From Gemmatimonadales bacterium (lineage in GTDB: Bacteria; Gemmatimonadota; Gemmatimonadetes; Gemmatimonadales; GWC2-71-9): a stretch of DNA of 64,000 bases. The notes beneath the pieces are model-generated. The model saw nothing but the letters and a program-made list of their open reading frames with translations. It was not told where the DNA came from and searched no databases. Both the position numbers and the translations under genes were made by a program. The stretch covers positions 967 to 64,966 of the forward strand of contig DASZPT010000151.1 of assembly GCA_035549935.1 (NCBI GenBank), in the 5' to 3' direction. This document shows positions 408 through 58,259 of this stretch, piece after piece. Position 1 is the first letter of the stretch; each line of letters opens with the position of its first letter.

Positions 408-1577
408 ATGATCTTCGAGCTGGAAGAGAGCGGCGCGCAGAACGCCCGCATGAAGGTGATCGGCGTCGGCGGCGGCGGCGGCAACGCCGTCAACCGGATG
501 ATCGAGGAGCAGCTCCAGGGGGTCGAGTTCATCTCGGTGAACACCGACTCGCAGGCGCTCACCAACTCGAAGTCCGACGTGAAGATCCAGATCGGCCGCA
601 AGCTTACCCGCGGGCTGGGCGCGGGGGCCCGCCCGGAGATCGGGCGCCAGGCGATCGAGGAGAACCGGGACGACGTCCTGCAGGCGCTCCAGGGCGCCGA
701 CATGGTCTTCGTCACCTGCGGCATGGGCGGCGGCACCGGCACCGGCGCGGCGCCGATCATCGCGCAGATGGCGCGGGACATCGGGGCCCTGACCGTCGGC
801 ATCGTGACCAAGCCCTTCCTCTTCGAGGGGAAGAAGCGGATGCGCCAGGCGGAGATGGGGATCGCCGAGATGCGCAACTCGGTCGACACGATGATCGTGG
901 TGCCGAACGAGCGGCTCCTCGCCGTGGTGGGGAAGGGGATTCCGTTCCAGGACTCGCTCAAGAAGGCGGACGAGGTCCTGCTGCAGGCCACCCAGGGCAT
1001 CGCCAACCTGATCACCAAGACCGGCATCATCAACGTCGACTTCGCCGACGTGCGTACCATCATGCAGAACGGCGGCTCCGCCCTCATGGGGACCGGTGTC
1101 GGCCGGGGGGAGAACCGGGCGATGGAGTCGGCCCAGCAGGCGATCTCGAGCCCGCTGCTCGACAACATCTCGATCGCCGGCGCCAACGGGGTGCTGATCA
1201 ACATCACCGGCGGCAACGACCTGACCCTGGGCGAAGCGACGACGATCAACGACATCATCCACGACGCGGTGGGCGACGAGGCCGAGATCATCTTCGGCGC
1301 CGCCACCGACCCGTCGATGCAGGGCGAGGTGCGGGTCACCGTCATCGCGACCGGCTTCGACCGGGTGGCGGAGCAGCCGGTGGCCCCGGCCCAGCCGGCC
1401 AAGCCGGCGCCGGGCGTCATCAATTTCCCGAGCGGGAAGCGGGTGACAGCGCCCCAGCCGCAGCCGCCCGCCGCCCCGGTCCAGCCGCCGGCCCGCCCCG
1501 ACGCGCGCCGTACGCCGAACCCGGGCGATGTGCCGGAGATGGAGATCCCGACGTTCATCCGCCGGCAGATGGACTGA
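408..1577 (+). CDS. ftsZ: cell division GTPase FtsZ
   Basis: 389 aa with [13 protein letters not shown] and tubulin signature [21 protein letters not shown]-like motif upstream of the ATG. Confidence 0.98.
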
Positions 1578-1611
1578 GCGGCTGGCAAGGACTCGGTCCA
1601 CCATGAACAGC

Positions 1612-1692
1612 TCAACGCAGAGGCGCAGAGAACGCAGAGGGCCGCCGAGGGCCCTCTGTGAACCCTGCGTCCTCCGCGTCTCCGGTTTGAAG
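1612..1692. repeat. CGCAGAG-type hairpin repeat, copy A1 ('empty', 5-nt loop)
   Basis: TCAACGCAGAGGCGCAGAGAACGCAGAGGGCC / loop / GGCCCTCTGTGAACCCTGCGTCCTCCGCGTCTCCGGTTTGAAG. Fills the ftsZ-M23 intergenic gap. Confidence 0.85.
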
Positions 1693-1694
1693 TC

Positions 1695-2999
1695 GTGATG
1701 ACGGCCGACCACAAGACCCTGGTGCGAAGCGCCCTGGGGTTCGCCTGCTCGGTGATGATCCTCGGGGCCGCCGGGTTCTTCGCCATGCGCGGCGCCTGGC
1801 CCTGGCGCACCGAGCCGGTCCGCCCGGTGACGGTGCAGGAACTCTTCAGCGAGACCCGCGACACCCTCCGCCGGGGCGAGACCCTCTCCGCCCTCTTCGT
1901 CCGCCAGGGCTTCGACGGCTTCCAGATGAGCCAGAGCGCCACCGCCGGCATCTTCGAGCCGCGGCGGCTGCGGCCCGGGCTGGTGTTCAGTTTCCTGCGC
2001 AAGTCGAACGACTCGGTCCCCACCAAGGTGGTCGTCCGGATGGGGCGCGATCAGCGGGTGGCGCTCCACCTCCTCAATGACGGCTGGTGGCCCGAGGCGG
2101 AGCCGGTCGAGTGGCGGTCCGAGCCGGTGACCCTCTCGGGACGGATCACCACCTCGCTCTACAACGCGCTCGACGACGAGGTGAGCGATTCGCTGCTCTC
2201 CCTGCCCGAGCGCATCCGCCTCGCCTGGGACCTCGCCGATATCTTCGCCTGGCAGGTGGACTTCAGCCGCGATATCCGCCCGGGTGACCATTTCCGGGTG
2301 CTGGCGGAGCGGCTCACCTCGGAGGAAGGGGAGGTGCGCTACGGCCGGGTGCTGGCCGCCGACCTCGAGATCGGCGGGGCCTCGTTCGACGCCTATCGCT
2401 TCACCACCCCCGACGGGGTCTCGGCCTTCTACGACCGCGAGGGGCGCTCGCTCCGGCGGGCCTTCCTGCTCGCGCCGGTCTCCTTCCGCCGGATCTCCTC
2501 GGGCTTCAACCGCGCGCGGCTTCACCCGATCCTGGGCATCGTGCGGCGGCACGAGGGCATGGACTTCGCCGCCGATCCGGGGACGCCGGTCATGGCGGCG
2601 GGTGAAGGCGTCGTGGTCCGGAGCGGCTGGAGCGGCGGCTACGGGAACCTGATCGAGCTCCGCCACGCGAACGGCATCACCACCCGCTACGGGCACCTCC
2701 GCGCCTTCGCGACGGGGCTCATCCCCGGGCGGCGCGTGACCCAGGGCGAGATCATCGGCTACGTCGGGTCCACCGGCCTCGCCACCGGTCCCCATCTCCA
2801 CTACGAGTTCCGGGTGAACGGCGTCTCGGTCGACCCGCACACCGCGGATCTCGGCACCGGCGACCCGGTCCCCGCCGACCGCCTCCGCGATTTCGAGCGG
2901 GAGCGCGCGCGGCTCGATGCCCTGCTCCTCTGGCCCGAGGGCCCGGTACCGGCGCTCGCCGGTTCGTTCACGACCCCCGTGTCCGGCGCGGCCAACTGA
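1695..2999 (+). CDS. M23/LytM family metallopeptidase, membrane-anchored
   Basis: N-terminal TM segment. M23 zinc motifs HEGMDF and GPHLHYEF. Start is GTG 1695 or ATG 1698. Confidence 0.9.
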   Translation: MMTADHKTLVRSALGFACSVMILGAAGFFAMRGAWPWRTEPVRPVTVQELFSETRDTLRRGETLSALFVRQGFDGFQMSQSATAGIFEPRRLRPGLVFSFLRKSNDSVPTKVVVRMGRDQRVALHLLNDGWWPEAEPVEWRSEPVTLSGRITTSLYNALDDEVSDSLLSLPERIRLAWDLADIFAWQVDFSRDIRPGDHFRVLAERLTSEEGEVRYGRVLAADLEIGGASFDAYRFTTPDGVSAFYDREGRSLRRAFLLAPVSFRRISSGFNRARLHPILGIVRRHEGMDFAADPGTPVMAAGEGVVVRSGWSGGYGNLIELRHANGITTRYGHLRAFATGLIPGRRVTQGEIIGYVGSTGLATGPHLHYEFRVNGVSVDPHTADLGTGDPVPADRLRDFERERARLDALLLWPEGPVPALAGSFTTPVSGAAN

Positions 3000-3021
3000 C
3001 CGGCACTCCCGGTCGCCCTCC

Positions 3022-3738
3022 GTGGATCTCTTCCCCGCAATCGACATCCGTGGCGGCCGGGTCGTGCGCCTGGCGCAGGGCGAGGCCGGGCGCGAAACCC
3101 GGTACCATGATGATCCCGTAGCACAGGCAGAGCAGTTCCTCGCCGCTGGTGCACGCTGGATTCACGTGGTCGACCTCGACCGTGCCTTCGGTTCCGGGAA
3201 CAATCTTGCGGCGATCCAGGCCATCGCGTCTCGCGTCGGAACGCGGGTGCGCATCCAGGTGGGCGGTGGCCTCCGTTCGCTCGACGCACTCGACGCGGTG
3301 CTCGGGCTGGGTGTCGCGCGTGCCGTCCTCGGCACCGCCGCGGTCACCGAGCCGGCGCTGGTGCCGGCCGCGATCCGGGCCGCGGGCGCCGAGCGGGTAG
3401 TGATCGGTCTCGACGCGAAGCGGGGGATGGTCGCGATTCGCGGGTGGGTGGAGACCACCGATCTGCGGGTCGACGAGGTCTGCCGCCGGGTGCTGGGCGA
3501 GGGCGCGAAGACGATCGTCTACACCGATGTCGCGCGGGACGGGATGCTCAGCGGCCCCGATGTCGAGGGCGCGAAGGTATTGAGCGCGATGGGGGCCGCG
3601 GTGATCGCGAGCGGCGGGGTGAGCTCGCTCGACGATCTGCGGGCCGCGAAGGCGGCGGGCCTCGCCGGCGCGATCGTCGGGCGGGCGCTGTACGAAGCGA
3701 AGTTCACTCTCGAACAGGCACTTGAGACGACCCGGTGA
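3022..3738 (+). CDS. hisA: phosphoribosylformimino-5-aminoimidazole carboxamide ribotide isomerase (HisA)
   Basis: The typical HisA N-terminus DLFPAIDIRGGRVVRL begins at in-frame GTG 3022. GGGLRS and ASGGVSSLDDL motifs present. The ORF-track start at 2917 would overlap the upstream gene. Confidence 0.9.
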   Translation: MDLFPAIDIRGGRVVRLAQGEAGRETRYHDDPVAQAEQFLAAGARWIHVVDLDRAFGSGNNLAAIQAIASRVGTRVRIQVGGGLRSLDALDAVLGLGVARAVLGTAAVTEPALVPAAIRAAGAERVVIGLDAKRGMVAIRGWVETTDLRVDEVCRRVLGEGAKTIVYTDVARDGMLSGPDVEGAKVLSAMGAAVIASGGVSSLDDLRAAKAAGLAGAIVGRALYEAKFTLEQALETTR

Positions 3739-3744
3739 GCACTG

Positions 3745-3843
3745 ATTCCCGCAGAGGCGCAAAGGCGCAGAGGGCCGCAGAGAGTTGGTCGGACCGCCGA
3801 ATCCTCTGCGGCCCTCCGCGTCTCGGTGCCACCGCGGTGAACC
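3745..3843. repeat. CGCAGAG-type hairpin repeat, copy A2
   Basis: GCAGAGGCGCAAAGGCGCAGAGGGCCGCAGAGA / 19-nt loop / CCTCTGCGGCCCTCCGCGTCTC...CCGCGGTGAACC. Lies between hisA and the vWA membrane gene. Confidence 0.8.
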
Positions 3844-3856
3844 TGCAGGGCGTGGC

Positions 3857-5650
3857 ATGCGTGTGATCCTGGTGGTTGCCGCTGCCGCGGCGGCCGCGTG
3901 GTTCACCTACTGGCGCCTGGAGCAGCTCGGCCGGCGCGGCTGGATCGCCGCCCTCTGCCGCGCGATCGCCTGGGCCGCCCTCGGCGTGCTCCTCCTCGAC
4001 CTGACCTGCGCGGTGAAGCCCGGCCCCGGGGCCCGGCCCCTGGTCCTCCTCGATGGCAGCCTCTCGATGGCGGCCGCCGGCGGCCGCTGGCAGGAAGCCC
4101 GGGACTCCGCCCGGGCGTGGGGCGAGGTCCGTCTCTTCGGCGAGCGCCGTGCGGGCGCTGATTCTCTCCCGACCCTCGGCCGCTCCGATCTCGGCCCGGC
4201 GATCGCCGCCGCCGCCGCGAGCGACCGGCCGGTCATCGTCGTGACCGACGGCGAGCTCGACGACGCGGCCGACCTCGCGCCGGAGGCGCTGGCGCGGGTC
4301 GGGGTCCGACTCTTACCGCGCGTGGCCGGGCCGGACCTCGCCATCCAGCGGGTGCGCGGCCCCGACCGGGTCACCGCAGGTGACACCATCCGGCTCGAGG
4401 CGGAGGTCCGCGCCTACGCGAGCGAGGCCGACAGCGCCCGGGTCGAGGTGCGCCTCGACCAGAAGCTGCTCGCCCGCCGGGCCCTGCGCCTGGGGCGGGA
4501 CGGCGCCGGCACCGCGGTCCTCACCTTTCCCTCCGCCGGCCTCTCCGGCGATCTCCTCTTCCGCGTGAGCCTGGCGGGCCCCGGCGACCGGGAGCCCCGC
4601 GACGATGCCCGCCTCTGGCGGGTCCGGGTGACGCCGACACCGGGGGTCGTCCTGGTGGCGAGCCCGCCGGACTGGGACGCCCGCTATCTCTTCCGCACCC
4701 TTCGCGAGGTGGGCCAGCTCCCGGTGCGGGGCTACGCCCGGTTCGCCACCGGGTGGCGGGCCATGGAAACCCTGGCGCCGGTCGCGGCGGACGAGGTGAG
4801 CCAGGCGGTGCGCCGCGCCGACGTGCTGGTGGTGAAGGGGAGGCTCCCCGAGGGGGTGCGCGAGGCGCGGGCCCGGGGCCGCTGGCTCTGGCCCTCCGGC
4901 GAGGGGGGCGAGACCGTGATTCCCGGCGAGTGGTACGTGAGCGCCCCGTCAGCCTCACCCGTCGCGGGTGCCTTCGTGGGCCAGCCGGTCGATTCCTTCC
5001 CGCCGCTCCTCGAGATCACCCCGATCGAGGCGGGCTCCGGCGAGTGGGTCGGGCTCAACGCCCAGCTCGGCCGCCGCGGCGCCGACCGCCCCATCCTGAT
5101 CGGCGGGGTGCGCGGCGGAACGCGCCAGATCACCACCGCCGCCGAAGGACTCTGGCGCTGGGCCTTCCGGGGCGGCACCAGTGAGCAGGCCTACCGCGCG
5201 CTGGTGGCGCAGGGGCTCTCCTGGCTCCTGGGGGCGGCGGATTCGGCCGGCGGGAAGGCGCGCCCGGTGCGCCCGGTGGTCGGCAACGGACGGCCGGTGG
5301 TATTCGAATGGAGCGGCGGCGGGAGTCCCGAGCCGCTCGGGATCCAGCTCCAGGGTGAGGGCGAGAGCCGCCGCGATACTCTCCGGTTCGACGGCGCCGG
5401 CCGCGCCGAGCTCTGGCTCCCGGTCGGGGTGCGCCGCTACCAGCTCGACGGGGGCGGGACGGGCGTGATCGCGGTGGACACCTGGTCCGAGGAGTGGCTC
5501 CCGCGCCCCGTGACGATCGCGGAGAAGAGCGCGCCGGCAGTCACGACCGCCGGCTTCACCAGCAGCCGCCGGTGGATCTGGCTGTTCGGCCTCGCGGTGT
5601 TCGGGCTGCTGGGGGAATGGGTGGTTCGGCGGCAACTGGGACTTCGCTAG
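3857..5650 (+). CDS. hypothetical membrane protein with vWA-like (MIDAS) region
   Basis: Two N-terminal TM helices from ATG 3857. DxSxS-like LLDGSLSM and VIVVTDGELDD motifs. C-terminal TM (WIWLFGLAVFGLLGEWVV). No recognisable full-length family. Confidence 0.65.
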   Translation: MRVILVVAAAAAAAWFTYWRLEQLGRRGWIAALCRAIAWAALGVLLLDLTCAVKPGPGARPLVLLDGSLSMAAAGGRWQEARDSARAWGEVRLFGERRAGADSLPTLGRSDLGPAIAAAAASDRPVIVVTDGELDDAADLAPEALARVGVRLLPRVAGPDLAIQRVRGPDRVTAGDTIRLEAEVRAYASEADSARVEVRLDQKLLARRALRLGRDGAGTAVLTFPSAGLSGDLLFRVSLAGPGDREPRDDARLWRVRVTPTPGVVLVASPPDWDARYLFRTLREVGQLPVRGYARFATGWRAMETLAPVAADEVSQAVRRADVLVVKGRLPEGVREARARGRWLWPSGEGGETVIPGEWYVSAPSASPVAGAFVGQPVDSFPPLLEITPIEAGSGEWVGLNAQLGRRGADRPILIGGVRGGTRQITTAAEGLWRWAFRGGTSEQAYRALVAQGLSWLLGAADSAGGKARPVRPVVGNGRPVVFEWSGGGSPEPLGIQLQGEGESRRDTLRFDGAGRAELWLPVGVRRYQLDGGGTGVIAVDTWSEEWLPRPVTIAEKSAPAVTTAGFTSSRRWIWLFGLAVFGLLGEWVVRRQLGLR

Positions 5651-5657
5651 CGCCCAG

Positions 5658-5690
5658 CCCTCCGCGTGCTCTGCGCCTCGGTGCTGAATG
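5658..5690. repeat. CGCAGAG-type repeat, solo (reverse-orientation) arm A3
   Basis: CCCTCCGCGTGCTCTGCGCCTCGGTGCTGAATG resembles the right arms of A1/A4. No partner arm found. Confidence 0.7.
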
Positions 5691-5706
5691 CACTTAGATT
5701 TGCGCC

Positions 5707-6630
5707 ATGACCGGACGCATCGGCGAAGCACCCAAGCTCTCTCTCTGGCAGCGCCTCAAGCGCATCGCCCTGACCGACGTCGGCGCGATGGTGCGGGGGA
5801 TGAACGCCGCCGACCTCGAGGCGCTCGAGCGGACGCTTATCGAGGCGGATTTCGGGGTGCAGGCCACCGTGGACCTGGTCCAGACCGTGGAGGACGAGGT
5901 CCGACGCGGGCGCCTCAAGACCGAGGAGGATCTCAAGCGGGCCGTGATCACCCGCCTGACCGCCCTCCTCGAGGTGAAGGGAAGCGACCCCGGCGCCATC
6001 GCGCGTGCCGCCGACGGCGGGCTCACCGTCATCCTCTTCATCGGCGTCAACGGCGTGGGCAAGACCACCTCGGTCGCCAAGGTCGCCCGCCGGCTGCTCG
6101 ACGAGGGGAGAAAGCCTCTTCTTGCGGCCGCCGACACGTGGCGGGCCGGCGCCGTGGCGCAACTCGCCACCTGGGCCGACCGGCTCAAGGTTCCCTCGGT
6201 GCTCGGCGCCCAGGGGGGCGATCCCGCCGCCGTCGCCTTCGACGCGCTGGAAGCCGCCCCCGGCCGCGGCGCCGACACCGTCCTCATCGACACCGCCGGC
6301 CGGCTCCATACCCAGGAAGGGTTGATGGAGGAGCTCCGCAAGGTGGCGCGCGTCATCGCCCGCAAGAGGCCCGGCGCGCCGCACGAGACCCTGCTCGTCC
6401 TCGACGGCACCGTCGGCCAGAACGCGATCCAGCAGGGCCGGCTCTTCTCACAGGCGGTCCAGCCCACCGGAATCATCGTCACCAAGCTCGATGGCAGCGC
6501 CCGCGGCGGTGCCGTGGTGGCGCTCCGCAAGGAGCTGGGGCTCCCCATCCGGTTCCTCGGCCTCGGCGAGTCGGTGGAAGACCTGGAGCCGTTCGACCCG
6601 CCCGCCTTCGCGGCAAGGCTGCTTGAGTAG
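5707..6630 (+). CDS. ftsY: signal recognition particle receptor FtsY
   Basis: SRP GTPase motifs GVNGVGKTT, DTAGRLH, TKLDG. Confidence 0.97.
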   Translation: MTGRIGEAPKLSLWQRLKRIALTDVGAMVRGMNAADLEALERTLIEADFGVQATVDLVQTVEDEVRRGRLKTEEDLKRAVITRLTALLEVKGSDPGAIARAADGGLTVILFIGVNGVGKTTSVAKVARRLLDEGRKPLLAAADTWRAGAVAQLATWADRLKVPSVLGAQGGDPAAVAFDALEAAPGRGADTVLIDTAGRLHTQEGLMEELRKVARVIARKRPGAPHETLLVLDGTVGQNAIQQGRLFSQAVQPTGIIVTKLDGSARGGAVVALRKELGLPIRFLGLGESVEDLEPFDPPAFAARLLE

Positions 6631-19605: not shown

Positions 19606-21854
19606 GGGCGCGGCCCGCACCCGTCCTGCTCGTCACCTTCGGGGCCGGTCTCGCGACCGGCCTCTCGCATTTTCAGGACCCGGCTCGCGTCGGACTGGTC
19701 CTGCTCGTCGCTGTCTGGCTCGGGCGCCGGACCCTGCTCGGCTTCGGCGCGATGGCGGGGGTCGTCGGCCTCGCGGCGGGTGGCCTCGTGCGTCAGGCCG
19801 AGGGTACGCGCTGCGCGGCCCGGTTGGCCGCGGGCGCAGTCACCGCCGACGTGCGACTGCTCGAACCGGTGCTCCCCGATGCGCGCCTCGCCCGGGCCGA
19901 GGTGGTGGACGGGAGTTGCACCGGTGCGCTCCTCACCCGCTGGCCCCGCGACGCCCGGGTCGAGCCGGGCGCGCTGGTGCGTCTCGAGGGGCGGTGGCTT
20001 CCGCGCCCGGCGGCACTGGGACCCGCCGACGGGCTCCTGCTCGTCGGCGAATTCCAGCCGACCGGGACCGAGCGGAGCCCCGCGACGGCCCTTCGCGGGT
20101 GGCTCGCGACCACCATCCGCCAGCTCTACGGCACACGCGCTGGCACCGTGGATGCCCTCGTGGTGAATCGCCGGGGGGCGATGGCGCCGGAGCTGCGCGA
20201 CCGTTACGCCCGCGCGGGGCTGGTCCACATCCTCTCGATCTCCGGCTTTCACGTCGGGGTCATCGTCGGGTGGATCGTGCTCCTCGCCCGGGCCCTCGGC
20301 GTCCCGGGGCCGAAGGCGACGCTCCTCGCCGCGCTGGTCGCCGCCGGCTACGTCCTCCTCCTCGCCTGGCCCGCGCCCGCGGCCCGGGCCGCGCTTCTCG
20401 CCCTGGTCGTGGCGCAGGCCCGGCTCCGGCAGCGGAACCTCCACCCGATGTCGCTCCTCGCGGCGACCTGCCTGCTGGTGCTGCTCCTCGATCCCTGGGC
20501 CATCTTCGACGCCGGCGCCTGGCTCTCCGCGTCGGCGCTGACCGGCGCGCTCGCCGCCACGCGCTGGAGCGATCGTGCCCTGGGACCGACCTGGCTCTGG
20601 CGGACACTCGCCGGGAGCGTGGGGGCGACGGTGGCCACCGCGCCGATCACCGCGGCGCTCTTCGGCACCGTGTCGATCGTGGGCGTCGGGCTCAACTTCA
20701 TCGCCATTCCGCTCGCCGCGGTGGCGGTGCCGGGCGTGCTCCTCAGTCTCCTGGCAGCGCCCGTCGTGCCGCCACTGGCCCGGGCGCTCGCCGCGGGCTC
20801 CGGCGCCCTCCTGGGCCTGCTGGACCAGGTCGCGTGGTGGGGCGGGGACTGGAGTTTCTCGGCGATCACGGTGCCGGCGGAACCCTGGTCCGCGCTCCCC
20901 TGGCTGGCGGTGCTGGTCATCGCGGCCTGGGGAATCACCGGGCGGTCGACCCGCTGGATCGCCCTGCAGCGCTGGTCCCTCGGCGGGGCGGCGGCCTCGT
21001 GGGTGGTGCTGCTCGCGGCGAAGCTCCCACGCGCTGACGCCGACTCCGGGCTCACGTTACATTTTCTCGATATCGGACAGGGCGATGCGGCTGCGGTGCA
21101 CACCCCCGCCGGCCACTGGGTCCTGATCGACGGTGGCCCGATCGGGGAGGGCTGGGACGCCGGGCGGCGGGTGGTGGTGCCCTTTCTCGAGCGGCAGCGG
21201 GCGCCGGGGGTGGCGCTGGTCCTGCTCTCGCACGCCCACGCCGATCACCTCGGCGGGCTGCCGTCGGTGATCGAGCGGTATCCGCCGGGCGAGGTGCTCG
21301 AGCCCGCGGAGCTGGTGGCCGATCCGCTCTACACCGGTTTCCTGGGTGAACTCGAGGCGCGCGACGTGCCGTGGCGCGCCGGCCGGTCGGGGCTCACCTT
21401 CCAGCTCGACAGCGTCCGCTTCACCATCCTGCACCCGGACAGCGCGTGGCCGGGGTGGCAGGAGGACCTGAACGAGGACAGCCTGGTGCTGCTCCTCGAG
21501 TACCACGGCTTCCGGGCGCTCTTCGCGGGCGATGCGGGGCTGCCGGTGGAACAGTGGCTCGCGGGCCGGGTCGGCCGGGTCGACGTACTCAAGGTGGGGC
21601 ACCACGGCTCCCGCTCCGCCACAGGGGCCGAGTGGCTCAGGGAACTCGAGCCCCGGGTCGCGGTGATCAGCAGCGGGACCGGGAACCGGTACGGTCATCC
21701 GCACCGGGAGGTGCTGGAGCGCCTTGCCCAGGCGAAGGTCTCCGTCTGGCGCACCGACCAGTCGGGGGCGATCCGGGTGGCGGTCGACAGCGCAGGCTAC
21801 GTGGTGGAGGGGAAGGGGCGGGTAGAGCGGTACGGGGTGGGACGAGAGAAGTGA
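19602..21854 (+). CDS. comEC: DNA internalization-related competence protein ComEC/Rec2
   Basis: 750 aa. Polytopic competence domain plus C-terminal metallo-beta-lactamase ([11 protein letters not shown]). Confidence 0.92.
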
Positions 21855-29307: not shown

Positions 29308-30507
29308 ATGGACGGAGCCGCACGCCTACGGGTTCCGTTCATGCTGTCCGATCGTGATCACGTCCGCCTGCCAGCGGCGAGGTCCCGACGGTCCCTCCCG
29401 GCCGTTCTCCTCGTCCTCTGCTGTCTCACCGAGCCCCTGCTCGCGCAGGGCGCTCGCGCCCAGCCCTTCACCCGCGGCCGTCCGCTCGCCGAATGGGTGC
29501 TGCAGACCGAACACTACATCCCGGAACTCCGTCGCGAGGCGGTGAAGGCGATCGCGGCGCTCGGCCCCGGTGCCGTGAGCGCGGTGCCGGCGCTGGTGCG
29601 TGCGACGCGTGACGAGAACGCCGAGGTCCGCTTCTGGGCGGTGGAGGGTCTCCGGAAGATCGGACCCGCGGCGGCGAAGGAGGGTGGGGCCGCGCTCGCC
29701 GTGGTGCTGGGCGACGACATCCGGTCCAACCAGCAGGCCGCGCGTCGCGCGCTCGAGGCGATGGGCCCGGCGGTGCTCCCGGTCCTGCTCCCGTCGCTCG
29801 AGTCGCCCGACGCCTGGGTGCGCGGCAACGCCGCGGAGGCGGTGGGCGCCGTCGCAGGCGGGAAGGGCGCGGCGGTGTCGGCGCTGAGCCGGCTCCTCGC
29901 GGACGACTCCCTCTGGGTGCGGGCCTCGGCGGCGTGGGCGATCGGCCGGATCGGGCCGCGGGCGAAATCGGCGGCGAAGCCCATGACCAAGGCGCTGAGC
30001 GAGGAACTCCGGCGTGACCCGACGCTCGCCGAAGTGGGCCAGCGCCTCAGGGTCGAAAATCTCGTCTACGGGCTGGGACGGCTTGGCCCGGCCGCGAACG
30101 ATGCGGTACCGCTTCTCCTCGCGGTGCTCTACGACGGCGCCGATTCGCTCCGCACCACGGCGGCCGAGGCGCTCGCCGGCGTCGGCGGCAAGGCGGCCCA
30201 GCCGCTCGGTCAGGCGGTGCGGGGCCCCGCGCCGATGCCGGTGCGGCTCGAGGCGGCGCGGGCGCTGCGCCTGATGGGCCCCGAGGGGAAGAAGGCGGTG
30301 GGCGACCTGGTGAAGCTGCTGGAAACGACCGATGAACTCGAGGGCGGCCGCGAGCTCGTCATCGCCTCGGCCGACGCGCTCGGGGCCATGGGGAAGTCGG
30401 CGAGGTCGGCGCTCAAGGTCCTCGAGAAGCAGCGGAAGCGGAGTGTCACGCCGGATGTCGTGGCGGCGCTCGACCGGGCGATCCGGAAGATTCGGCTCGG
30501 GGCGTGA
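29308..30507 (+). CDS. HEAT-repeat protein with N-terminal signal-like segment
   Basis: Repeated xxVRxxAxxALGxIGP units (HEAT/PBS-lyase type). Start is 29308, 29341 or 29257. Confidence 0.8.
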   Translation: MDGAARLRVPFMLSDRDHVRLPAARSRRSLPAVLLVLCCLTEPLLAQGARAQPFTRGRPLAEWVLQTEHYIPELRREAVKAIAALGPGAVSAVPALVRATRDENAEVRFWAVEGLRKIGPAAAKEGGAALAVVLGDDIRSNQQAARRALEAMGPAVLPVLLPSLESPDAWVRGNAAEAVGAVAGGKGAAVSALSRLLADDSLWVRASAAWAIGRIGPRAKSAAKPMTKALSEELRRDPTLAEVGQRLRVENLVYGLGRLGPAANDAVPLLLAVLYDGADSLRTTAAEALAGVGGKAAQPLGQAVRGPAPMPVRLEAARALRLMGPEGKKAVGDLVKLLETTDELEGGRELVIASADALGAMGKSARSALKVLEKQRKRSVTPDVVAALDRAIRKIRLGA

Positions 30508-30571
30508 GTTGATGGTGGATTGACGACGGGTGGCGAGGTTGGTCTGGTCTCGTCGTCAGGCAGAGTTCCGA

Positions 30572-30991
30572 GTGGTTCAACGCGGAGACGCAGAGAGCGC
30601 AGAGGGCGCAGAGCGATCGAGCAACGCCCTCTCTGAAATGGTGATCGGGGCCGCGATCGAGGTACATCGTTGCCTCGGACCGGGGCTGCTCGAGTCCGCG
30701 TACGAGCGGTGCATGTGCCGGGAGCTGTCGATCAGGGGTATTTCATTCCAGCGCCAGCAGTCACTGGACTTGGAATACAAGGGCTTGGCGATACGTGGCG
30801 CCTATCGGGTCGACCTCCTGATCGAGCAGCAACTTCTGGTTGAATTGAAAGCCCTCGAAACGATCTCCGAAATCCACCAGGTTCAACTACTCACCTACCT
30901 TCGCCTGTCAGGAAGGCGGCTGGGCCTGATCATCAATTTCAACACCCCTATTCTGTGGCGGGGGGTGAGGAGGGTCGTGAATTCACTGTGA
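30572..30991 (+). CDS. GxxExxY protein (PD-(D/E)XK nuclease superfamily, PDDEXK_3)
   Basis: IGAAIEVHRCLGPGLLESAYERC (GxxExxY motif), RVDLLIEQQLLVELK (D...ExK), QLLTYLRLSGRRLGLIINFN. Start ambiguous: GTG 30572, ATG 30638 or the track start at 30530. Confidence 0.85.
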   Translation: MVQRGDAESAEGAERSSNALSEMVIGAAIEVHRCLGPGLLESAYERCMCRELSIRGISFQRQQSLDLEYKGLAIRGAYRVDLLIEQQLLVELKALETISEIHQVQLLTYLRLSGRRLGLIINFNTPILWRGVRRVVNSL

Positions 30992-31032
30992 CCCCTCCGC
31001 GGCCTCTGCGTCCTCTGCGCCTCTGCGTTGAA
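30576..31032 (+). mobile_element. candidate TIR-bounded element: CGCAGAG-type inverted arms flanking the GxxExxY gene
   Basis: Left arm 30576-30613 and the reverse complement of 30993-31032 match at ~32/38 positions by hand alignment. Both outer ends read TTCAACGC. The interior is ~54% GC, against ~72% in the flank. Confidence 0.5.
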
Positions 31033-31058
31033 GCTCCATCCTTCCCAAACGCCAAGCC

Positions 31059-31087
31059 TTGAATCGCAGCGCCCAGCCAGCTAAGAT
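31059..31087 (+). promoter_or_regulatory. candidate sigma70-type promoter for fmdB-argS (TTGAAT-N17-TAAGAT)
   Basis: -35 TTGAAT at 31059-31064, a 17-nt spacer, and -10 TAAGAT at 31082-31087, ~35 nt upstream of ATG 31122. Confidence 0.45.
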
Positions 31088-31121
31088 ATTGCGCCCGTTT
31101 CTCTTAGGACTTCGCTGACCG

Positions 31122-31445
31122 ATGCCGACGTACGAGTACCGCTGCCCCGAAGGCCACACCTTCGAGCTCTTCCAGAAGATCTCGGAGAAGCCGCGCGCCA
31201 AGTGCCCCACCTGCGGGAAGATGGCGAGCCGGCAGATTTCCGGCGGGGCCGGCCTGGTCTTCAAGGGCTCCGGCTTCTACATCACCGATTACGGCAAGGA
31301 CGGGAAGGGCCCGCGGAAGGACTCGGCGTCCTCGACCTCCGACTCGAGCGCGAGCGCCTCGTCCGCGGAGACCAAGCCCGCGCCGGCCGAGACGCCGGCC
31401 GAGAAACCCAAGGGGAAGAGCCCTTCCAAGAAGGCCAAGGAGTGA
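31122..31445 (+). CDS. FmdB family zinc-ribbon protein
   Basis: MPTYEYRCPEGHTFE...CPTCG (CxxC...CxxC) followed by a low-complexity S/A/K tail. Confidence 0.88.
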   Translation: MPTYEYRCPEGHTFELFQKISEKPRAKCPTCGKMASRQISGGAGLVFKGSGFYITDYGKDGKGPRKDSASSTSDSSASASSAETKPAPAETPAEKPKGKSPSKKAKE

Positions 31446-43777: not shown

Positions 43778-43898
43778 GCGCGGAGGCGCGGAGGGCCACG
43801 GAGGTTCGTTGTTGCCGTAGTGACTTTCATGCTGGTGTTTGGACATCATGACCTCTGCGGCCCTCAGCGCCTGTGCGCCTCTGCGGTCGCAGTTCAGC
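43778..43898. repeat. CGCAGAG-type hairpin repeat, copy A5 with 47-nt AT-rich loop
   Basis: Left arm GGCGCGGAGGCGCGGAGGGCCACGGAGG, loop 43805-43851 (~45% GC by hand count), right arm CCTCTGCGGCCCTCAGCGCCTGTGCGCCTCTGCGGTCGCAGTTCAGC. Confidence 0.75.
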
Positions 43899-51243: not shown

Positions 51244-52352
51244 ACGCCAGGGGCGTGCTCGCCGGCGCGGCGGCCGTGTGTCTCGCCGCGGCCCCGCTCC
51301 AGGCGCAGCAGCGCGCCAACGTCTCGGGACGGGTCCTGCGCATCACCGCCACCGACACCGTACCCGTGGCGGCGGCGAAGGTCGTGCTCCACCGCGTGGG
51401 CCGGGCGGTGCAGGGGCCGATCGACTCGACCACCACCGGGCCGCGGGGCGAATTTCGCTTCCGGTTCGTCCCCGACACCAGCGCCGTCTACCTGCTGAGT
51501 TCGGGGTGGGCCGGCATCGAGTACTTCTCGAGTCCCGTCCACACCGATCCCGCCGCGCCCGACACCGGGCTCATGGTGGTCGTCTCCGACACCTCGAGCA
51601 CGACCAGGATCGACGTCGTTTCGCGGCACCTGGTGGTGGGCAAGCCATCCTCCGGCGGCAGCCGCGCGGTGCTCGAGATCATCGTCCTCGGCAACCCCGG
51701 TCCGACCACGCGGGTGGCGGCCGACAGCGCCCATCCGACCTGGGTGGCGGGGCTGCCGCACGGGGCGGTCAATGTCGAGGCGGGCAACGGCGACTTCTCG
51801 AGCGAGGCGCTCACCTTCCGGAACGACAGCGTGCTGCTTTTCGCGCCGATCGCGCCGGGAGAGAAGCAGGTGATCCTCACCTACGCCCTCCCCGCGCGGA
51901 GCGGCCCGGTGACGATCGCGATGCCGGACTCGATCGCGATGTTCAACATCCTCCTCGAGGAGTTCAACCTCACCGCGAAGGGCGGCGGGCTCGCGAAGGC
52001 CGACAGCCAGCAGATCGAGGGGCGGAGCTTCCAGCAGTGGGTCGGCTCGGTGCCGGCCGGCGCGACCGTGACGATCGACTTCCCGGGCAAGGGCCTCGCG
52101 GGATGGTTCCTGCCCGCGATCGTGAGTCTGCTGGCGATTTCGCTGGCGGTGATCGCGAGCCGGGTGCTGCAGAAGCGCCCGCCCGTGGCGGCGCAGGCGT
52201 CGGCGCTCGACCGGCTGGCGCAGCTCGACGCGCGCTACGCCGGGAAGGAGGCGAGCGTGACCGCGGAGGAGTGGCAGCAATATCAGGCAGAGCGCGCTCG
52301 CCTCAAGCAGGAGGTCGGCGCCCAGCTTGCGCGGACTCGTCCAACGTCCTAA
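51240..52352 (+). CDS. hypothetical single-pass membrane protein with carboxypeptidase-regulatory-like domain
   Basis: Signal peptide. The SGRV..........V.L.........TTTGPRGEFRFRF pattern is CarboxypepD_reg-like. TM near the C-terminus and a charged tail. Confidence 0.65.
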   Translation: MNARGVLAGAAAVCLAAAPLQAQQRANVSGRVLRITATDTVPVAAAKVVLHRVGRAVQGPIDSTTTGPRGEFRFRFVPDTSAVYLLSSGWAGIEYFSSPVHTDPAAPDTGLMVVVSDTSSTTRIDVVSRHLVVGKPSSGGSRAVLEIIVLGNPGPTTRVAADSAHPTWVAGLPHGAVNVEAGNGDFSSEALTFRNDSVLLFAPIAPGEKQVILTYALPARSGPVTIAMPDSIAMFNILLEEFNLTAKGGGLAKADSQQIEGRSFQQWVGSVPAGATVTIDFPGKGLAGWFLPAIVSLLAISLAVIASRVLQKRPPVAAQASALDRLAQLDARYAGKEASVTAEEWQQYQAERARLKQEVGAQLARTRPTS

Positions 52353-52356
52353 CTTC

Positions 52357-52520
52357 GGCGCCGTCGTAGACAACTCATTGCACGCGAGTCGGGACGCTCG
52401 GAAGCCGGTGTGAAGCCGGCGCGGCCCCGCCACTGTAACGGGCAGCAACACTCTCCGCTCACGACGCCACTGGGAAACCGGGAAGGCGAGCGGAGGCCCG
52501 AAGCCAGGAGACCTCTCGGC
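52357..52520 (+). promoter_or_regulatory. cobalamin (B12) riboswitch
   Basis: Conserved blocks GGGACGCTCGGAAGCCGGTGTGAAGCCGGCGCGGCCCCGCCACTGTAACGGG, GCCACTGGGAAACCGGGAAGGCG and B12-box-like GAAGCCAGGAGACCTC. Ends 3 nt before the GTG of a BtuF-like gene. Confidence 0.9.
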
Positions 52521-52522
52521 TC

Positions 52523-53500
52523 GTGCCACCACCAACACCCTCGGGGGAGGGACGGGTGGCGTCACCAGCCTCGAAGTCCAGGCTCTTGATCGCCCATCTC
52601 CCAGGTGTCGGGGATGGGCGTTCTGTTTGCCGGGCCCTCGCGGCCGCGGCCCTCGCCCTCCTCGCCGCCTGCGGAACCAGGACCGGCACCACCGCCGGCG
52701 GGCTCGTGGTCGTCGATGACGCCGGCGACACCACGCGGCTCGCGCGTCCCGCGGTGCGGGTCGTGTCGCTCAGCCCGGCCACCACCGAGCTGATGTTCGC
52801 CATCGGCGCCGGCCCCGTGCTGGTGGGCCGCACCCGCTGGTGCGACTATCCCGCCGAGGCGAAGGCGGTGCCCGACGTCGGCGACGGCATCCCTCCCAAC
52901 ATCGAGAGCGTGCTGGCGCAGCATCCCGACCTGGTGCTGCTCTATCGCTCGCCCCAGAATGTCGACGCCGCCCGGCGGTTCCGCGAGGCCGGCGCCGCGG
53001 TGCTGCAGCTCGATTTCAACCATCTCGCCGATGTCTCCCGTCTCGCGCGCCTGGTGGCGCCACTGGTCGGTCATGCGGCGGAAGGCGACTCGCTCGCGAC
53101 CTCGCTCGACCGGCAGCTCCACCAGCTCGCGGCGACCCGGGACACCACCCACGCCGCCAACGTGCTGATCATGGCGTGGGACCAGCCGCCGATGGTGATC
53201 GGGGCGGGGAGCTTCCAGAGCGAGATCCTCACCCTGGCCGGCGGGCACAACGTCTTCGATGACGTCACCGCCCCGTCCGCCACCGTGAGCATCGAGGCGA
53301 TCGCGGCGCGGCACCCGGCGGTGATCCTGGTGAGCGACACCGGCGTTCCCGGCTTCGCGAGGCGCCCGGAGTGGCGGGTGGTCCCCGCGGTGCGCGACCG
53401 GCACTTCCTCCACTTCGCGACGCCGGCCTTCGGGCGGCCGAGCCCGCGGGCGCCGGCGCTGGTGCGGGCCCTCCGGGATTCGCTGGCGGCGGCGCGATGA
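52523..53500 (+). CDS. BtuF/FecB-type periplasmic binding lipoprotein (probable cobalamin-binding)
   Basis: Lipobox LLAAC. The VVSLSPATTELMFAIGAG pattern of PF01497. Follows the B12 riboswitch. Start is GTG 52523 or TTG 52586. Confidence 0.88.
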   Translation: MPPPTPSGEGRVASPASKSRLLIAHLPGVGDGRSVCRALAAAALALLAACGTRTGTTAGGLVVVDDAGDTTRLARPAVRVVSLSPATTELMFAIGAGPVLVGRTRWCDYPAEAKAVPDVGDGIPPNIESVLAQHPDLVLLYRSPQNVDAARRFREAGAAVLQLDFNHLADVSRLARLVAPLVGHAAEGDSLATSLDRQLHQLAATRDTTHAANVLIMAWDQPPMVIGAGSFQSEILTLAGGHNVFDDVTAPSATVSIEAIAARHPAVILVSDTGVPGFARRPEWRVVPAVRDRHFLHFATPAFGRPSPRAPALVRALRDSLAAAR

Positions 53501-57332: not shown

Positions 57333-58259
57333 ATGCGCATCGTCTCCCTCCTTCCCAGCGCCACCGAGATGCTCTGCGCCCTCGGGCTCGAGGAACAGCT
57401 CGTCGGGGTCACGCACGGCTGTGACTATCCCGGGTCGATCACCCGCCTCCCGCGCGTCACCAGCACCGCGATCCCCAAGGACGCCACGAGTGGCGAGATC
57501 GACCGGCTGGTGCGCGAGCGGTACGCCGCGAGCCTCCCGCTCTACGACCTGGACCGGCATCTCCTCCAGCGGCTCCGGCCCGACCTCCTCGTGACGCAGG
57601 GGCTCTGCGACGTCTGCGCCGTCCCCGACCGGGATGCCCGCGACGTCGCGGCCGATCTCCCCGGCTGTCCCACGGTCGTGAGCCTCGCGCCGCGCACGCT
57701 GGCCGATGTCTTCGCGAACATCGCCGAGCTGGGGCACCTGACCGGCCGCGAGGCGGAGGCCTCCCGGCTCGTCGCATCACTCGAGGCCCGGACCGATCGG
57801 GTCCGGGAGCGGGCCGCGCTCGCGCCCCGGGTGCGCGTGACGCTGCTCGAGTGGCTCGATCCACTCTACGCCTGCGGGCACTGGACCCCGGAGCTGGTCG
57901 CCATCGCCGGGGGCAGGGAAGGGCACGCCGAGCCGGGCGTGGCGAGTCGGGTACTCGGCTGGGAGGAGGTTCTCGCGTGGCAACCGGAGGTGATGGTGAT
58001 CGCCGGGTGTGGCCTCTCCGTCGAGGAGGTGGAGCGGCAGTTCGAGTCGGTGGCCCGGCGCCTGGGATTCGACGCCCTCCCGTGCAGCCGGAGCGGCCGG
58101 ATCGCCGCCGTCGACGGGCAGGCCTATTTCAGTCGGCCGGGTCCCAGGCTGGTCGACAGTCTCGAGCTGCTGGCGCACCTGCTGCACCCCGACCGCTTTC
58201 CCCATGCCCCGGCTCCGTTCCTCGCGCTCGGCCGGCCGCGATCGGCCCGCCCGGCCTAG
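57333..58259 (+). CDS. cobalamin-binding-protein-like PBP (BtuF fold) without signal peptide
   Basis: MRIVSLLPSATEMLCALGL starts directly with the first beta-strand of the PF01497 fold. No signal or lipobox. Confidence 0.85.
   Translation: MRIVSLLPSATEMLCALGLEEQLVGVTHGCDYPGSITRLPRVTSTAIPKDATSGEIDRLVRERYAASLPLYDLDRHLLQRLRPDLLVTQGLCDVCAVPDRDARDVAADLPGCPTVVSLAPRTLADVFANIAELGHLTGREAEASRLVASLEARTDRVRERAALAPRVRVTLLEWLDPLYACGHWTPELVAIAGGREGHAEPGVASRVLGWEEVLAWQPEVMVIAGCGLSVEEVERQFESVARRLGFDALPCSRSGRIAAVDGQAYFSRPGPRLVDSLELLAHLLHPDRFPHAPAPFLALGRPRSARPA

Follow-up and report, generated by a model that had tools for sequence, protein, structure and literature searches.

Small bacterial genes that are flanked by inverted short repeats, with the same repeats also dispersed as intergenic hairpin doublets, are known from the repetitive extragenic palindrome (REP)/RAYT systems, in which RAYT is an HUH/Y1 transposase resembling TnpA of IS200/IS605. 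Terminal inverted repeats with sub-terminal motifs, internal-deletion derivatives that outnumber the full copy and insertion polymorphism are likewise familiar from terminal inverted repeat (TIR) transposons and miniature inverted-repeat transposable elements (MITEs). Here we describe a locus that shares these traits and carries a different enzyme. It lies in a stretch of 64,000 nt (hereafter the window) from a Gemmatimonadales metagenome-assembled genome, and consists of a GxxExxY gene, which encodes a RecB/Cas4-type PD-(D/E)XK nuclease, between two inverted arrays of a heptamer. A 2012 survey of PD-(D/E)XK proteins listed the function of this family as 'Unknown', and in the literature available to us, which is incomplete in coverage and does not include the TIGR04256 curators' text, we found no later functional study and only passing mentions of the family. 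Provisionally, the combination of nuclease and heptamer arms therefore appears to be undescribed.

The cassette is composed of a short leader, three to four heptamers behind TTCAC, a gene for a nuclease of ~125 aa and an inverted array. This layout holds for most sampled members of the main GxxExxY subfamily, in several phyla. We read it as a compact (~0.5 kb) selfish cassette whose nuclease would act on its own flanking heptamer arrays and whose decay gives rise to hairpins that are retained and at times spread; this is the reading we prefer, although we place it a little short of probable.

The cassette at the window locus

The element in the window comprises four features:

30505 to 30575, + strand: leader of the element, (TGA)GTTGATGG..GGTTGG..GAGTGG, starting at the stop codon of the upstream HEAT gene
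30576 to 30618, + strand: left (purine-strand) arm, TTCAAC + CGCGGAG A CGCAGAG AG CGCAGAG GG CGCAGAG
30572 to 30991, + strand: GxxExxY / PDDEXK_3 nuclease gene, 139 aa from GTG 30572 (GenBank: 117 aa from ATG 30638)
30990 to 31032, + strand: right (pyrimidine-strand) arm, beginning inside the stop codon and ending ..CTCTGCGTTGAA

Both arms were identified by an inverted-repeat search and by a heptamer-array detector. They are 43 nt long, 81% complementary and separated by 371 nt, close to what an initial annotation of this DNA had proposed (inverted arms of ~40 bp bracketing a single gene); indeed, the GxxExxY gene is the sole long open reading frame (ORF) between them, running from either GTG 30572 or ATG 30638 to the stop at 30991. 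The same annotation placed the gene in the loop of a hairpin. This stands insofar as the gene lies between inverted arms, but the arms are no plain palindrome: they are arrays of three to four heptamers, CGC(A/G)GAG, at 8-9 nt spacing behind an outer TTCAAC, conserved as such and with mismatches that show no G.U bias. The GC contrast that had been counted by hand (~54% vs ~72%) is accurate, with 54.2% in 30721-30960 vs 71.7% in 30421-30480. Allowing up to two mismatches, the two-unit pattern GCGCAGAGNNCGCAGAG occurs seven times in the window vs 0.88 expected, a number reached in 0 of 100 shuffles; one of the seven matches, at 57603, lies outside all elements described here. The RNA of the complete element folds so that its two arms pair with each other (z = -5.5).

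The conserved unit extends ~70 nt to the left of 30576, up to the HEAT stop codon (30505). This leader can be aligned among the window, L011, L093, L091, L195 and L197 despite differing upstream genes (HEAT, a minus-strand gene, DMT_YdcZ), with similarity starting at TGAGTTGAT, and it is missing from the empty sites L018 and L050. In L197, leader, arms and gene lie between DMT_YdcZ and SnoaL genes on an unrelated contig of 63.7% GC, and the encoded protein is 65% identical to that of the window. Given that similarity to L197 starts exactly at (TGA)GTTGAT and stops ~10 nt past the right arm, the complete unit in the window spans about 30505-31045 (~0.53 kb). The identical GxxExxY protein is on record in 13 contigs from separate sequencing runs, and the 10 that we examined all share the same locus, with the gene order HEAT protein - GxxExxY - Zn_ribbon_8 - ArgS. 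Downstream, at 31045-31121, a strongly conserved promoter-like block (CTTGAATC-N17-GCTAAGATATTGCGCC-GTTTCTCTTAGGAC) precedes the Zn_ribbon_8/ArgS operon; the block is also present in ~25 Gemmatimonadales loci (e.g. L018 9575-9650), and GxxExxY elements always lie immediately upstream of it.

The window protein matches PF13366 (PDDEXK_3) with 135.6 bits (cut-off 22, E 1.3e-39) and TIGR04256 (GxxExxY) with 136.8 bits (cut-off 35, E 4e-40). PDDEXK_3 is its sole Pfam match, and a Y1_Tnp domain is absent. The motif that gives the family its name is G38-L-L-E41-S-A-Y44. In alignments of 23 and 38 sequences it is invariant or nearly so, as are E30, D81, E91-L-K93 (RVDLLIEQQLLVELK) and Q105xxxY109; the latter residues are RecB-family motifs and include the D...ExK catalytic pattern that the initial annotation had recognized. 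The AlphaFold2 model (pLDDT 90.3, pTM 0.82) predicts a PD-(D/E)XK alpha/beta nuclease fold with a Cas4/lambda-exonuclease-like core, the nearest Foldseek structures being Cas4 (4ic1, 4r5q), lambda exonuclease and RecE (3syy and 1avq among the matches), at E-values of only ~1e-3. Since the ratio of non-synonymous to synonymous divergence (dN/dS) is 0.11-0.20 where dS is measurable, the protein is functional and under purifying selection, with its catalytic residues intact. Cas4 is defined by four cysteines. The window protein (117-139 aa) has a single invariant cysteine (C47) and no four-cysteine Fe-S cluster, and its gene has no cas or CRISPR neighbours at the locus, where it is accompanied by the HEAT protein, Zn_ribbon_8 and ArgS genes. 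For the window protein, PADLOC gave no defence-system match, PHROGs no phage-family match and a sequence search of the PDB no relative. The family comprises 21,880 clusters at 50% identity with E <= 1e-3 and was not found in 50,697 phage records. The top matches in a representative library (P0361-P0371) are proteins of 260-295 aa with two GxxExxY stretches, which may be tandem genes fused via read-through of the intervening arm. At another locus (P0040, L176-L181) the GxxExxY gene is found within a toxin-antitoxin-rich island (PIN, HicB, UPF0175, AF2212-like), and a further GxxExxY gene close by is found in only some of the samples.

Arms and start codons across the GxxExxY family

By scanning metagenomes with a GxxExxY alignment we gathered 80 diverse loci, and searched them with a strict arm detector that requires at least three heptamer units. 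Arms in normal polarity are present at 62 of the 80, as would be expected if other GxxExxY genes were flanked in the same way:

41 of 80 loci: both arms, with the purine array upstream of the sense gene
21 of 80 loci: single arm, normal polarity
4 of 80 loci: reversed polarity
2 of 80 loci: other arm status
12 of 80 loci: no arm detected

The heptamer consensus is C-R-C-N-R-A-G, commonly in the forms CGCAGAG, CACAGAG, CACGGAG and CGCGGAG, although positions 1, 3, 6 and 7 of the logo are partly circular because the detector fixes parts of the heptamer. Units are separated by spacers of 1-2 nt, mostly purine, and their period is 8 nt as often as 9. Outside the first unit, five bases form the motif T-T-C-A-C (69-93% per position), which emerged without being built into the detector. 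At the second heptamer position, 34 elements have G and 31 have A, with no relation to the GC content of the host. In 61 of 65 elements the same base recurs there in each of the 6-8 units of the two arms; all units of an element thus switch in concert. The idea that the heptamers are Chi sites of the host was dropped, since different variants are found on a single contig (L127) and sister lineages also differ in theirs.

Armed copies from cultured organisms follow the same plan. In Sphingomonas parapaucimobilis an armed GxxExxY gene with CGCGAAG units lies between fabD and fabG, in Bernardetia between ade and a guanylyltransferase gene, and in Bacteroides finegoldii between radA and a gene for an FAD protein, where the CACAGAG units are GC-rich within an AT-rich genome; B. 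finegoldii also has a gene-less hairpin directly after the stop codon of a LuxR-family gene. Elements begin 0-30 nt past the stop codon of a co-oriented gene (HEAT, ftsZ, hisA, GT4, fabD, radA, LuxR). No cargo other than GxxExxY was found between arms. Two wide arm pairs (785 and 1354 nt) were candidates for such cargo and proved to be a GxxExxY gene with an extra leader and two unrelated arms, respectively. In 45 loci the gene lies ~8 GC points under its flanks, yet its composition tracks that of the host (r = 0.86).

In most loci the conserved IIGAAIEVH is preceded, at a distance of ~9 codons, by an ATG that lies just inside the left arm, and at many loci (L101, L102, L118, L142, L145, L152, L155, L167, L173) a stop codon separates the arm from this canonical ATG. 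To judge from these reading frames, the left arm is normally non-coding. The window clade has lost the canonical ATG. Homologues in this clade start M/V-VQRR at the outer end of the arm, and in the window the Pfam domain begins upstream of ATG 30638, with no start codon between this ATG and GTG 30572. Being the sole earlier start, GTG 30572 is the probable one, and the window copy is probably translated through the left arm as VVQRGDAESAEGAE... Many homologues are annotated by gene callers as reading through the left arm, and in the window clade the outer end of the arm offers the only usable start upstream of the domain. One might therefore suppose that the inverted repeat merely reflects translation of a low-complexity N-terminus (QRRGAExAExAE), or that it arose by chance or in assembly. 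We regard this as extremely improbable. The stop codons between arm and ATG, together with a period of 8 as often as 9 nt, rule out such an N-terminus as a general explanation; moreover, gene-less copies lie between genes, the right arm is not translated, the locus was assembled identically in all 10 contigs examined from separate runs, and the pattern is enriched in the window as given above. It follows that many start codons of the family are mis-called through the arm.

Gene-less hairpins and their arrival at new sites

Copies of the arms are found at four further places in the window:

1612 to 1692, + strand: gene-less hairpin between ftsZ and an M23 peptidase gene, with 4 + 4 heptamers and a 5-6 nt loop, preceded by a ATGAACAGC relic
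3745 to 3843, + strand: gene-less hairpin between hisA and a 599-aa gene
5658 to 5690, + strand: solo right-type arm between the 599-aa gene and ftsY
43778 to 43898, + strand: gene-less hairpin between a GT4 glycosyltransferase gene and hpf, with a 49-nt loop

All four had been reported in the initial annotation and hold up, as does its suggestion that the short hairpins are internally deleted versions of the gene-carrying copy. As single-stranded DNA the gene-less copies of the window fold with z = -3.3 to -4.6. The loop at 43778-43898 opens with GGTTCGTTG (compare GGTTCGCTG in the L034 gene) and closes with TGA+CCTCTGCGG, so that it resembles a GxxExxY gene at both ends, and the ATGAACAGC relic that precedes the arms at 1612 also does so at the orthologous HisA site of L187. 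Elsewhere, L015 contains two tandem 237-nt units whose loops retain the 3' end of the gene (..RKVVNAW*), followed by an intact unit, and L014 is a twice-deleted, frameshifted version of the intact element in its sister L093 (ArgS 94% identical). Paired arms are spaced either 12-230 nt or, in copies with a GxxExxY gene, 378-600 nt apart. Sequence comparison thus identifies the gene-less hairpins as internal-deletion derivatives of gene-carrying units. The two deleted units of L015 (8625-9100) are a tandem duplication directly upstream of the intact one, and tandem runs of gene-less hairpins also occur in L099, L127 and L150. The 26 gene-less hairpins all point the same way as the GxxExxY gene of their contig; 11 candidates for reversed hairpins all turned out to be junctions between tandem elements. 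Arms also go together with the gene, as had been anticipated, at a density of 56 per 100 kb around GxxExxY genes vs 0.5 per 100 kb in 0.81 Mb of unrelated loci.

Orthologous loci were obtained through an ArgS scan of species-representative genomes and through HisA homologues. The ftsZ hairpin (1612) has an orthologous hairpin in the sister species (L187), the hisA hairpin (3745) is present in L187 and in L188, a 98%-identical strain, and the solo arm before ftsY (5658) is a one-unit relic in L187. All three are absent in L189, L190 and L191, in which the genes flanking the hairpin sites lie 9-60 nt apart. The ftsZ, hisA and ftsY copies are common to the window species, the 98%-identical strain and the sister species L034/L187. 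The hairpin before hpf is missing from the orthologous spacer in 12 of 13 relatives. Gene-less hairpins have thus colonised at least four sites in the lineage of the window. Between window and L187 the orthologous hairpins are ~30% diverged and have retained their pairing. The GT4/hpf spacer of L014 (~20650-20720) holds a 7-nt periodic repeat (GGACAGC GGACAGC GGATAGC) that is unrelated to the arms.

Larger numbers are reached on the two megaplasmids of Gemmatirosa kalamazoonensis, which hold at least 79 copies of one hairpin; three of the Gemmatirosa elements, within 10 kb, have identical 26-nt arms. On plasmid 1 (L192 19941-20368) a frameshifted GxxExxY gene has a complete hairpin on either side in place of a half-arm, and a 40-kb stretch of L192 holds 6-7 hairpins of two heptamer classes. 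Comparison of loci thus shows occupied sites, some with the full cassette and some with a gene-less hairpin, whose counterparts in relatives are empty. The initial annotation had proposed to look for presence/absence polymorphism at the HEAT/Zn-ribbon site itself, and this is seen in L018 and L050, where the site is empty.

Could the arms simply be expression or insulation signals? In such a scenario they would act in cis for an ordinary repair or defence nuclease gene, as operator arrays or through pairing of the 5' and 3' ends of the mRNA, which would thereby be insulated, processed or throttled within host operons; hairpins left after deletion would be kept as terminators or stabilisers, and spread would be due to host recombination and horizontal transfer and not to the nuclease. 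The position of the canonical ATG just inside the left arm, which makes this arm a GGAG/GAGG-rich 5' leader with the right arm as its complement, would fit, as would the location of elements directly after stop codons, co-oriented and even within the fab operon, the common polarity of all hairpins with transcription, the arm-to-arm pairing of the whole-element RNA, the pairing kept by orthologous hairpins at ~30% divergence and vertical descent at the Zn-ribbon/ArgS locus. Nonetheless, arm mismatches are of the A.C type in 85 cases and of the G.U type in 72, so that an excess of G.U is lacking and a sense-RNA stem under selection was rejected. Scans found neither T-run terminators at the hairpins (0 in 1400-5900 and 30300-31300) nor sigma-70 promoters, and Rfam covariance models gave no family match, only sub-threshold noise from miRNA hairpins. 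This explanation also does not account for the arrival of hairpins at four sites that are empty in relatives, for the Gemmatirosa copies with identical arms, or for the conservation of heptamer and TTCAC across phyla regardless of host GC. Altogether we find it unlikely, although it is the main alternative.

Cognate arms do match each other better than non-cognate ones, in a test that cannot tell selection for pairing from common descent. T-runs follow the right arm in some low-GC relatives. Small T-rich, terminator-like hairpins lie between left arm and ATG in L110 (~195-237), L152 (314-347) and L155 (2922-2953), all of which are longer elements (475-600 nt). Elsewhere in the window, a full-length cobalamin riboswitch is located at 52350-52533 (+) (Rfam RF00174, 68.9 bits).

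Proposed mechanism and comparison with known systems

As a selfish cassette, the element would be expressed by read-through from the host gene. We infer that its nuclease would then recognise the heptamer arrays at both ends and break the DNA there. An occupied copy could template repair or recombination, with the arrays serving as homology or for fold-back, and this would copy the cassette, swap cargo between arms and occasionally seed hairpins at new sites in trans. RAYT maintaining REPINs and a homing endonuclease maintaining its own gene would be parallels. Mobility is real but slow, and most copies would be inherited vertically and then decay.

The history of the window copy is informative here, and we compared the Zn_ribbon_8/ArgS site across ~30 Gemmatimonadales loci:

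Intact element: window, L034, L011, L093, L091, L195, L015
Inverted and broken: L020
Decayed: L014, L021
Gene-less hairpin: L028
Solo arm: L019
Empty: L018, L050 and ~14 others

Five of the elements at this site align end to end. In the ArgS tree, empty alleles are nested among occupied ones, and no GxxExxY gene was found elsewhere in the 1.39 Mb of loci covered. Between the window and its sister species L034 the flanking genes have dS 0.72 (ArgS) and 0.71 (HEAT), with third-position identity 0.60-0.63, and the 70-nt leaders are 65% identical. In the GxxExxY core, third-position identity drops to 0.29 and dS is saturated and cannot be computed; the two proteins are 56% identical, no closer than copies from other phyla. 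Saturated synonymous sites between such flanks suggest that cargo has been replaced between the arms. In a search for a paralogue, which named no Gemmatirosa protein, a Gemmatirosa copy shared 70-74% identity with proteins from Planctomycetota and Chloroflexota.

A number of observations weigh against a mobile, self-serving cassette. The closest readable homologues of the window gene (62-72% identity) mostly lie immediately upstream of Zn_ribbon_8/ArgS, even with another upstream neighbour, and the window copy itself is an old resident, largely inherited vertically, and not a recent insertion. Local hypermutation could explain the saturated synonymous sites as an alternative to cargo replacement. 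Heptamer class tracks the protein tree weakly, the nearest neighbour being of the same class in 44 of 65 cases. The two Gemmatirosa megaplasmids examined combine many hairpins with one GxxExxY gene, which is frameshifted. Neither a target-site duplication nor a precise junction rule was found, filled and empty relatives being too diverged to define junctions. Exact protein look-ups led to one locus each, never to two different loci, and recent insertion sequence-like activity of the full element was rejected on this ground. Only 8 of 72,556 plasmid records contain GxxExxY, all of them large and non-mobilizable. A RecB/Cas4-type nuclease is no known transposase, and its contact with the arms is putative. 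Finally, distant subfamilies (Prevotella, Treponema; 33-35% identity) are flanked differently, and the arm rule therefore applies to the main subfamily and not to all of PF13366. In Prevotella nigrescens (L200 1350-1990) a distant GxxExxY gene lies between direct repeats of ~65 nt (TCGGCG.AGCCGACTG..ACAAATAGAA) and has no inverted arms.

Food for a different scenario is the apparent exchange of cargo between conserved arms. The hairpins could be the primary, REP-like family, driven by the host or by another enzyme, and GxxExxY a secondary parasite that homes into their loops by cutting empty hairpins and being copied in during repair. Small PD-(D/E)XK homing endonucleases exist, e.g. I-Ssp6803I. 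The gene sits exactly between the arms, many gene-less loops measure only 12-50 nt and have no recognisable gene relics, and in Gemmatirosa hairpins far outnumber genes. On the other hand, several gene-less loops do retain 5' or 3' relics of the gene, which points to deletion and not to an empty target, and relics of the leader (ATGAAC..) remain outside the arms. Moreover, arms are rare where no GxxExxY gene is near (the 0.5 per 100 kb given above), L011 and L093 have the gene and no hairpins in ~33 kb each, and the leader travels with the gene. On balance we judge homing into pre-existing hairpins to be distinctly unlikely.

Returning to the selfish cassette, its boldest form would be that GxxExxY cassettes are minimal mobile elements of ~0.5 kb that act autonomously and form a class of their own, new to science. 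Their sole encoded protein, the RecB/Cas4-type nuclease of ~125 aa, would recognise inverted TTCAC-[CRCNRAG]3-4 arrays and drive copying, cargo exchange and hairpin spread by break-and-repair, with no known transposase chemistry. We put this forward as a tentative proposal that is rather unlikely to hold in full. If true, a function would be assigned to a family of >20,000 protein clusters in many bacterial phyla. If the nuclease acts on the arrays, the cassette would possibly be the smallest self-contained mobile unit in bacteria, and would join a short, programmable-looking DNA motif to a tiny nuclease. Packaging between heptamer arrays and dispersal of hairpins to new intergenic sites together give the GxxExxY family a concrete, testable role, and the hairpins represent an unannotated class of repeats in Gemmatimonadota, Bacteroidota, Alphaproteobacteria and other phyla.

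How does the cassette compare with described systems? With integron attC cassettes it shares small, apparently promoterless co-oriented ORFs, imperfect palindromic sites and tandem units (L015, L099, L127). However, an integron cassette has the whole attC palindrome at one of its ends, whereas here half a palindrome is found at each end, and no integrase was seen adjoining GxxExxY genes among the loci inspected. Cas4, lambda exonuclease, RecE and RecB are the best structural matches and have the E, D, ExK and QxxxY motifs in common with the window protein, which differs in being about half their size, in lacking the Fe-S cysteine cluster and in having no cas or recombination neighbours. Free-standing homing endonucleases are similar in being small nuclease ORFs between conserved co-oriented host genes, patchy in presence and more diverged than their flanks; such genes have no inverted repeat arrays around them and leave no dispersed hairpin derivatives.

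In the preferred reading, the cassette works like the two systems named at the outset. Unlike TIR transposons and MITEs, the element encodes no DDE, HUH, serine or tyrosine transposase, its single ORF being PDDEXK_3 only, and identical full copies at multiple loci were not seen; nor was an obvious target-site duplication, among relatives too diverged to define junctions. In REP/RAYT, as here, the gene is usually present at a single locus and inherited vertically, while hairpins expand in particular lineages and far outnumber genes. The differences lie in the enzyme, a RecB/Cas4-type PD-(D/E)XK nuclease in place of an HUH/Y1 transposase; in the arms, which are three to four heptamers behind a TTCAC end and no REP palindrome; and in the gene-less copies, which here are demonstrable deletion derivatives of the gene-carrying unit. 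Having neither an HUH nor any other known transposase, the cassette falls outside the definitions of both REP/RAYT and MITE. If its nuclease does act on the arrays, it would represent a REPIN/RAYT-like system that uses an enzyme from another superfamily.

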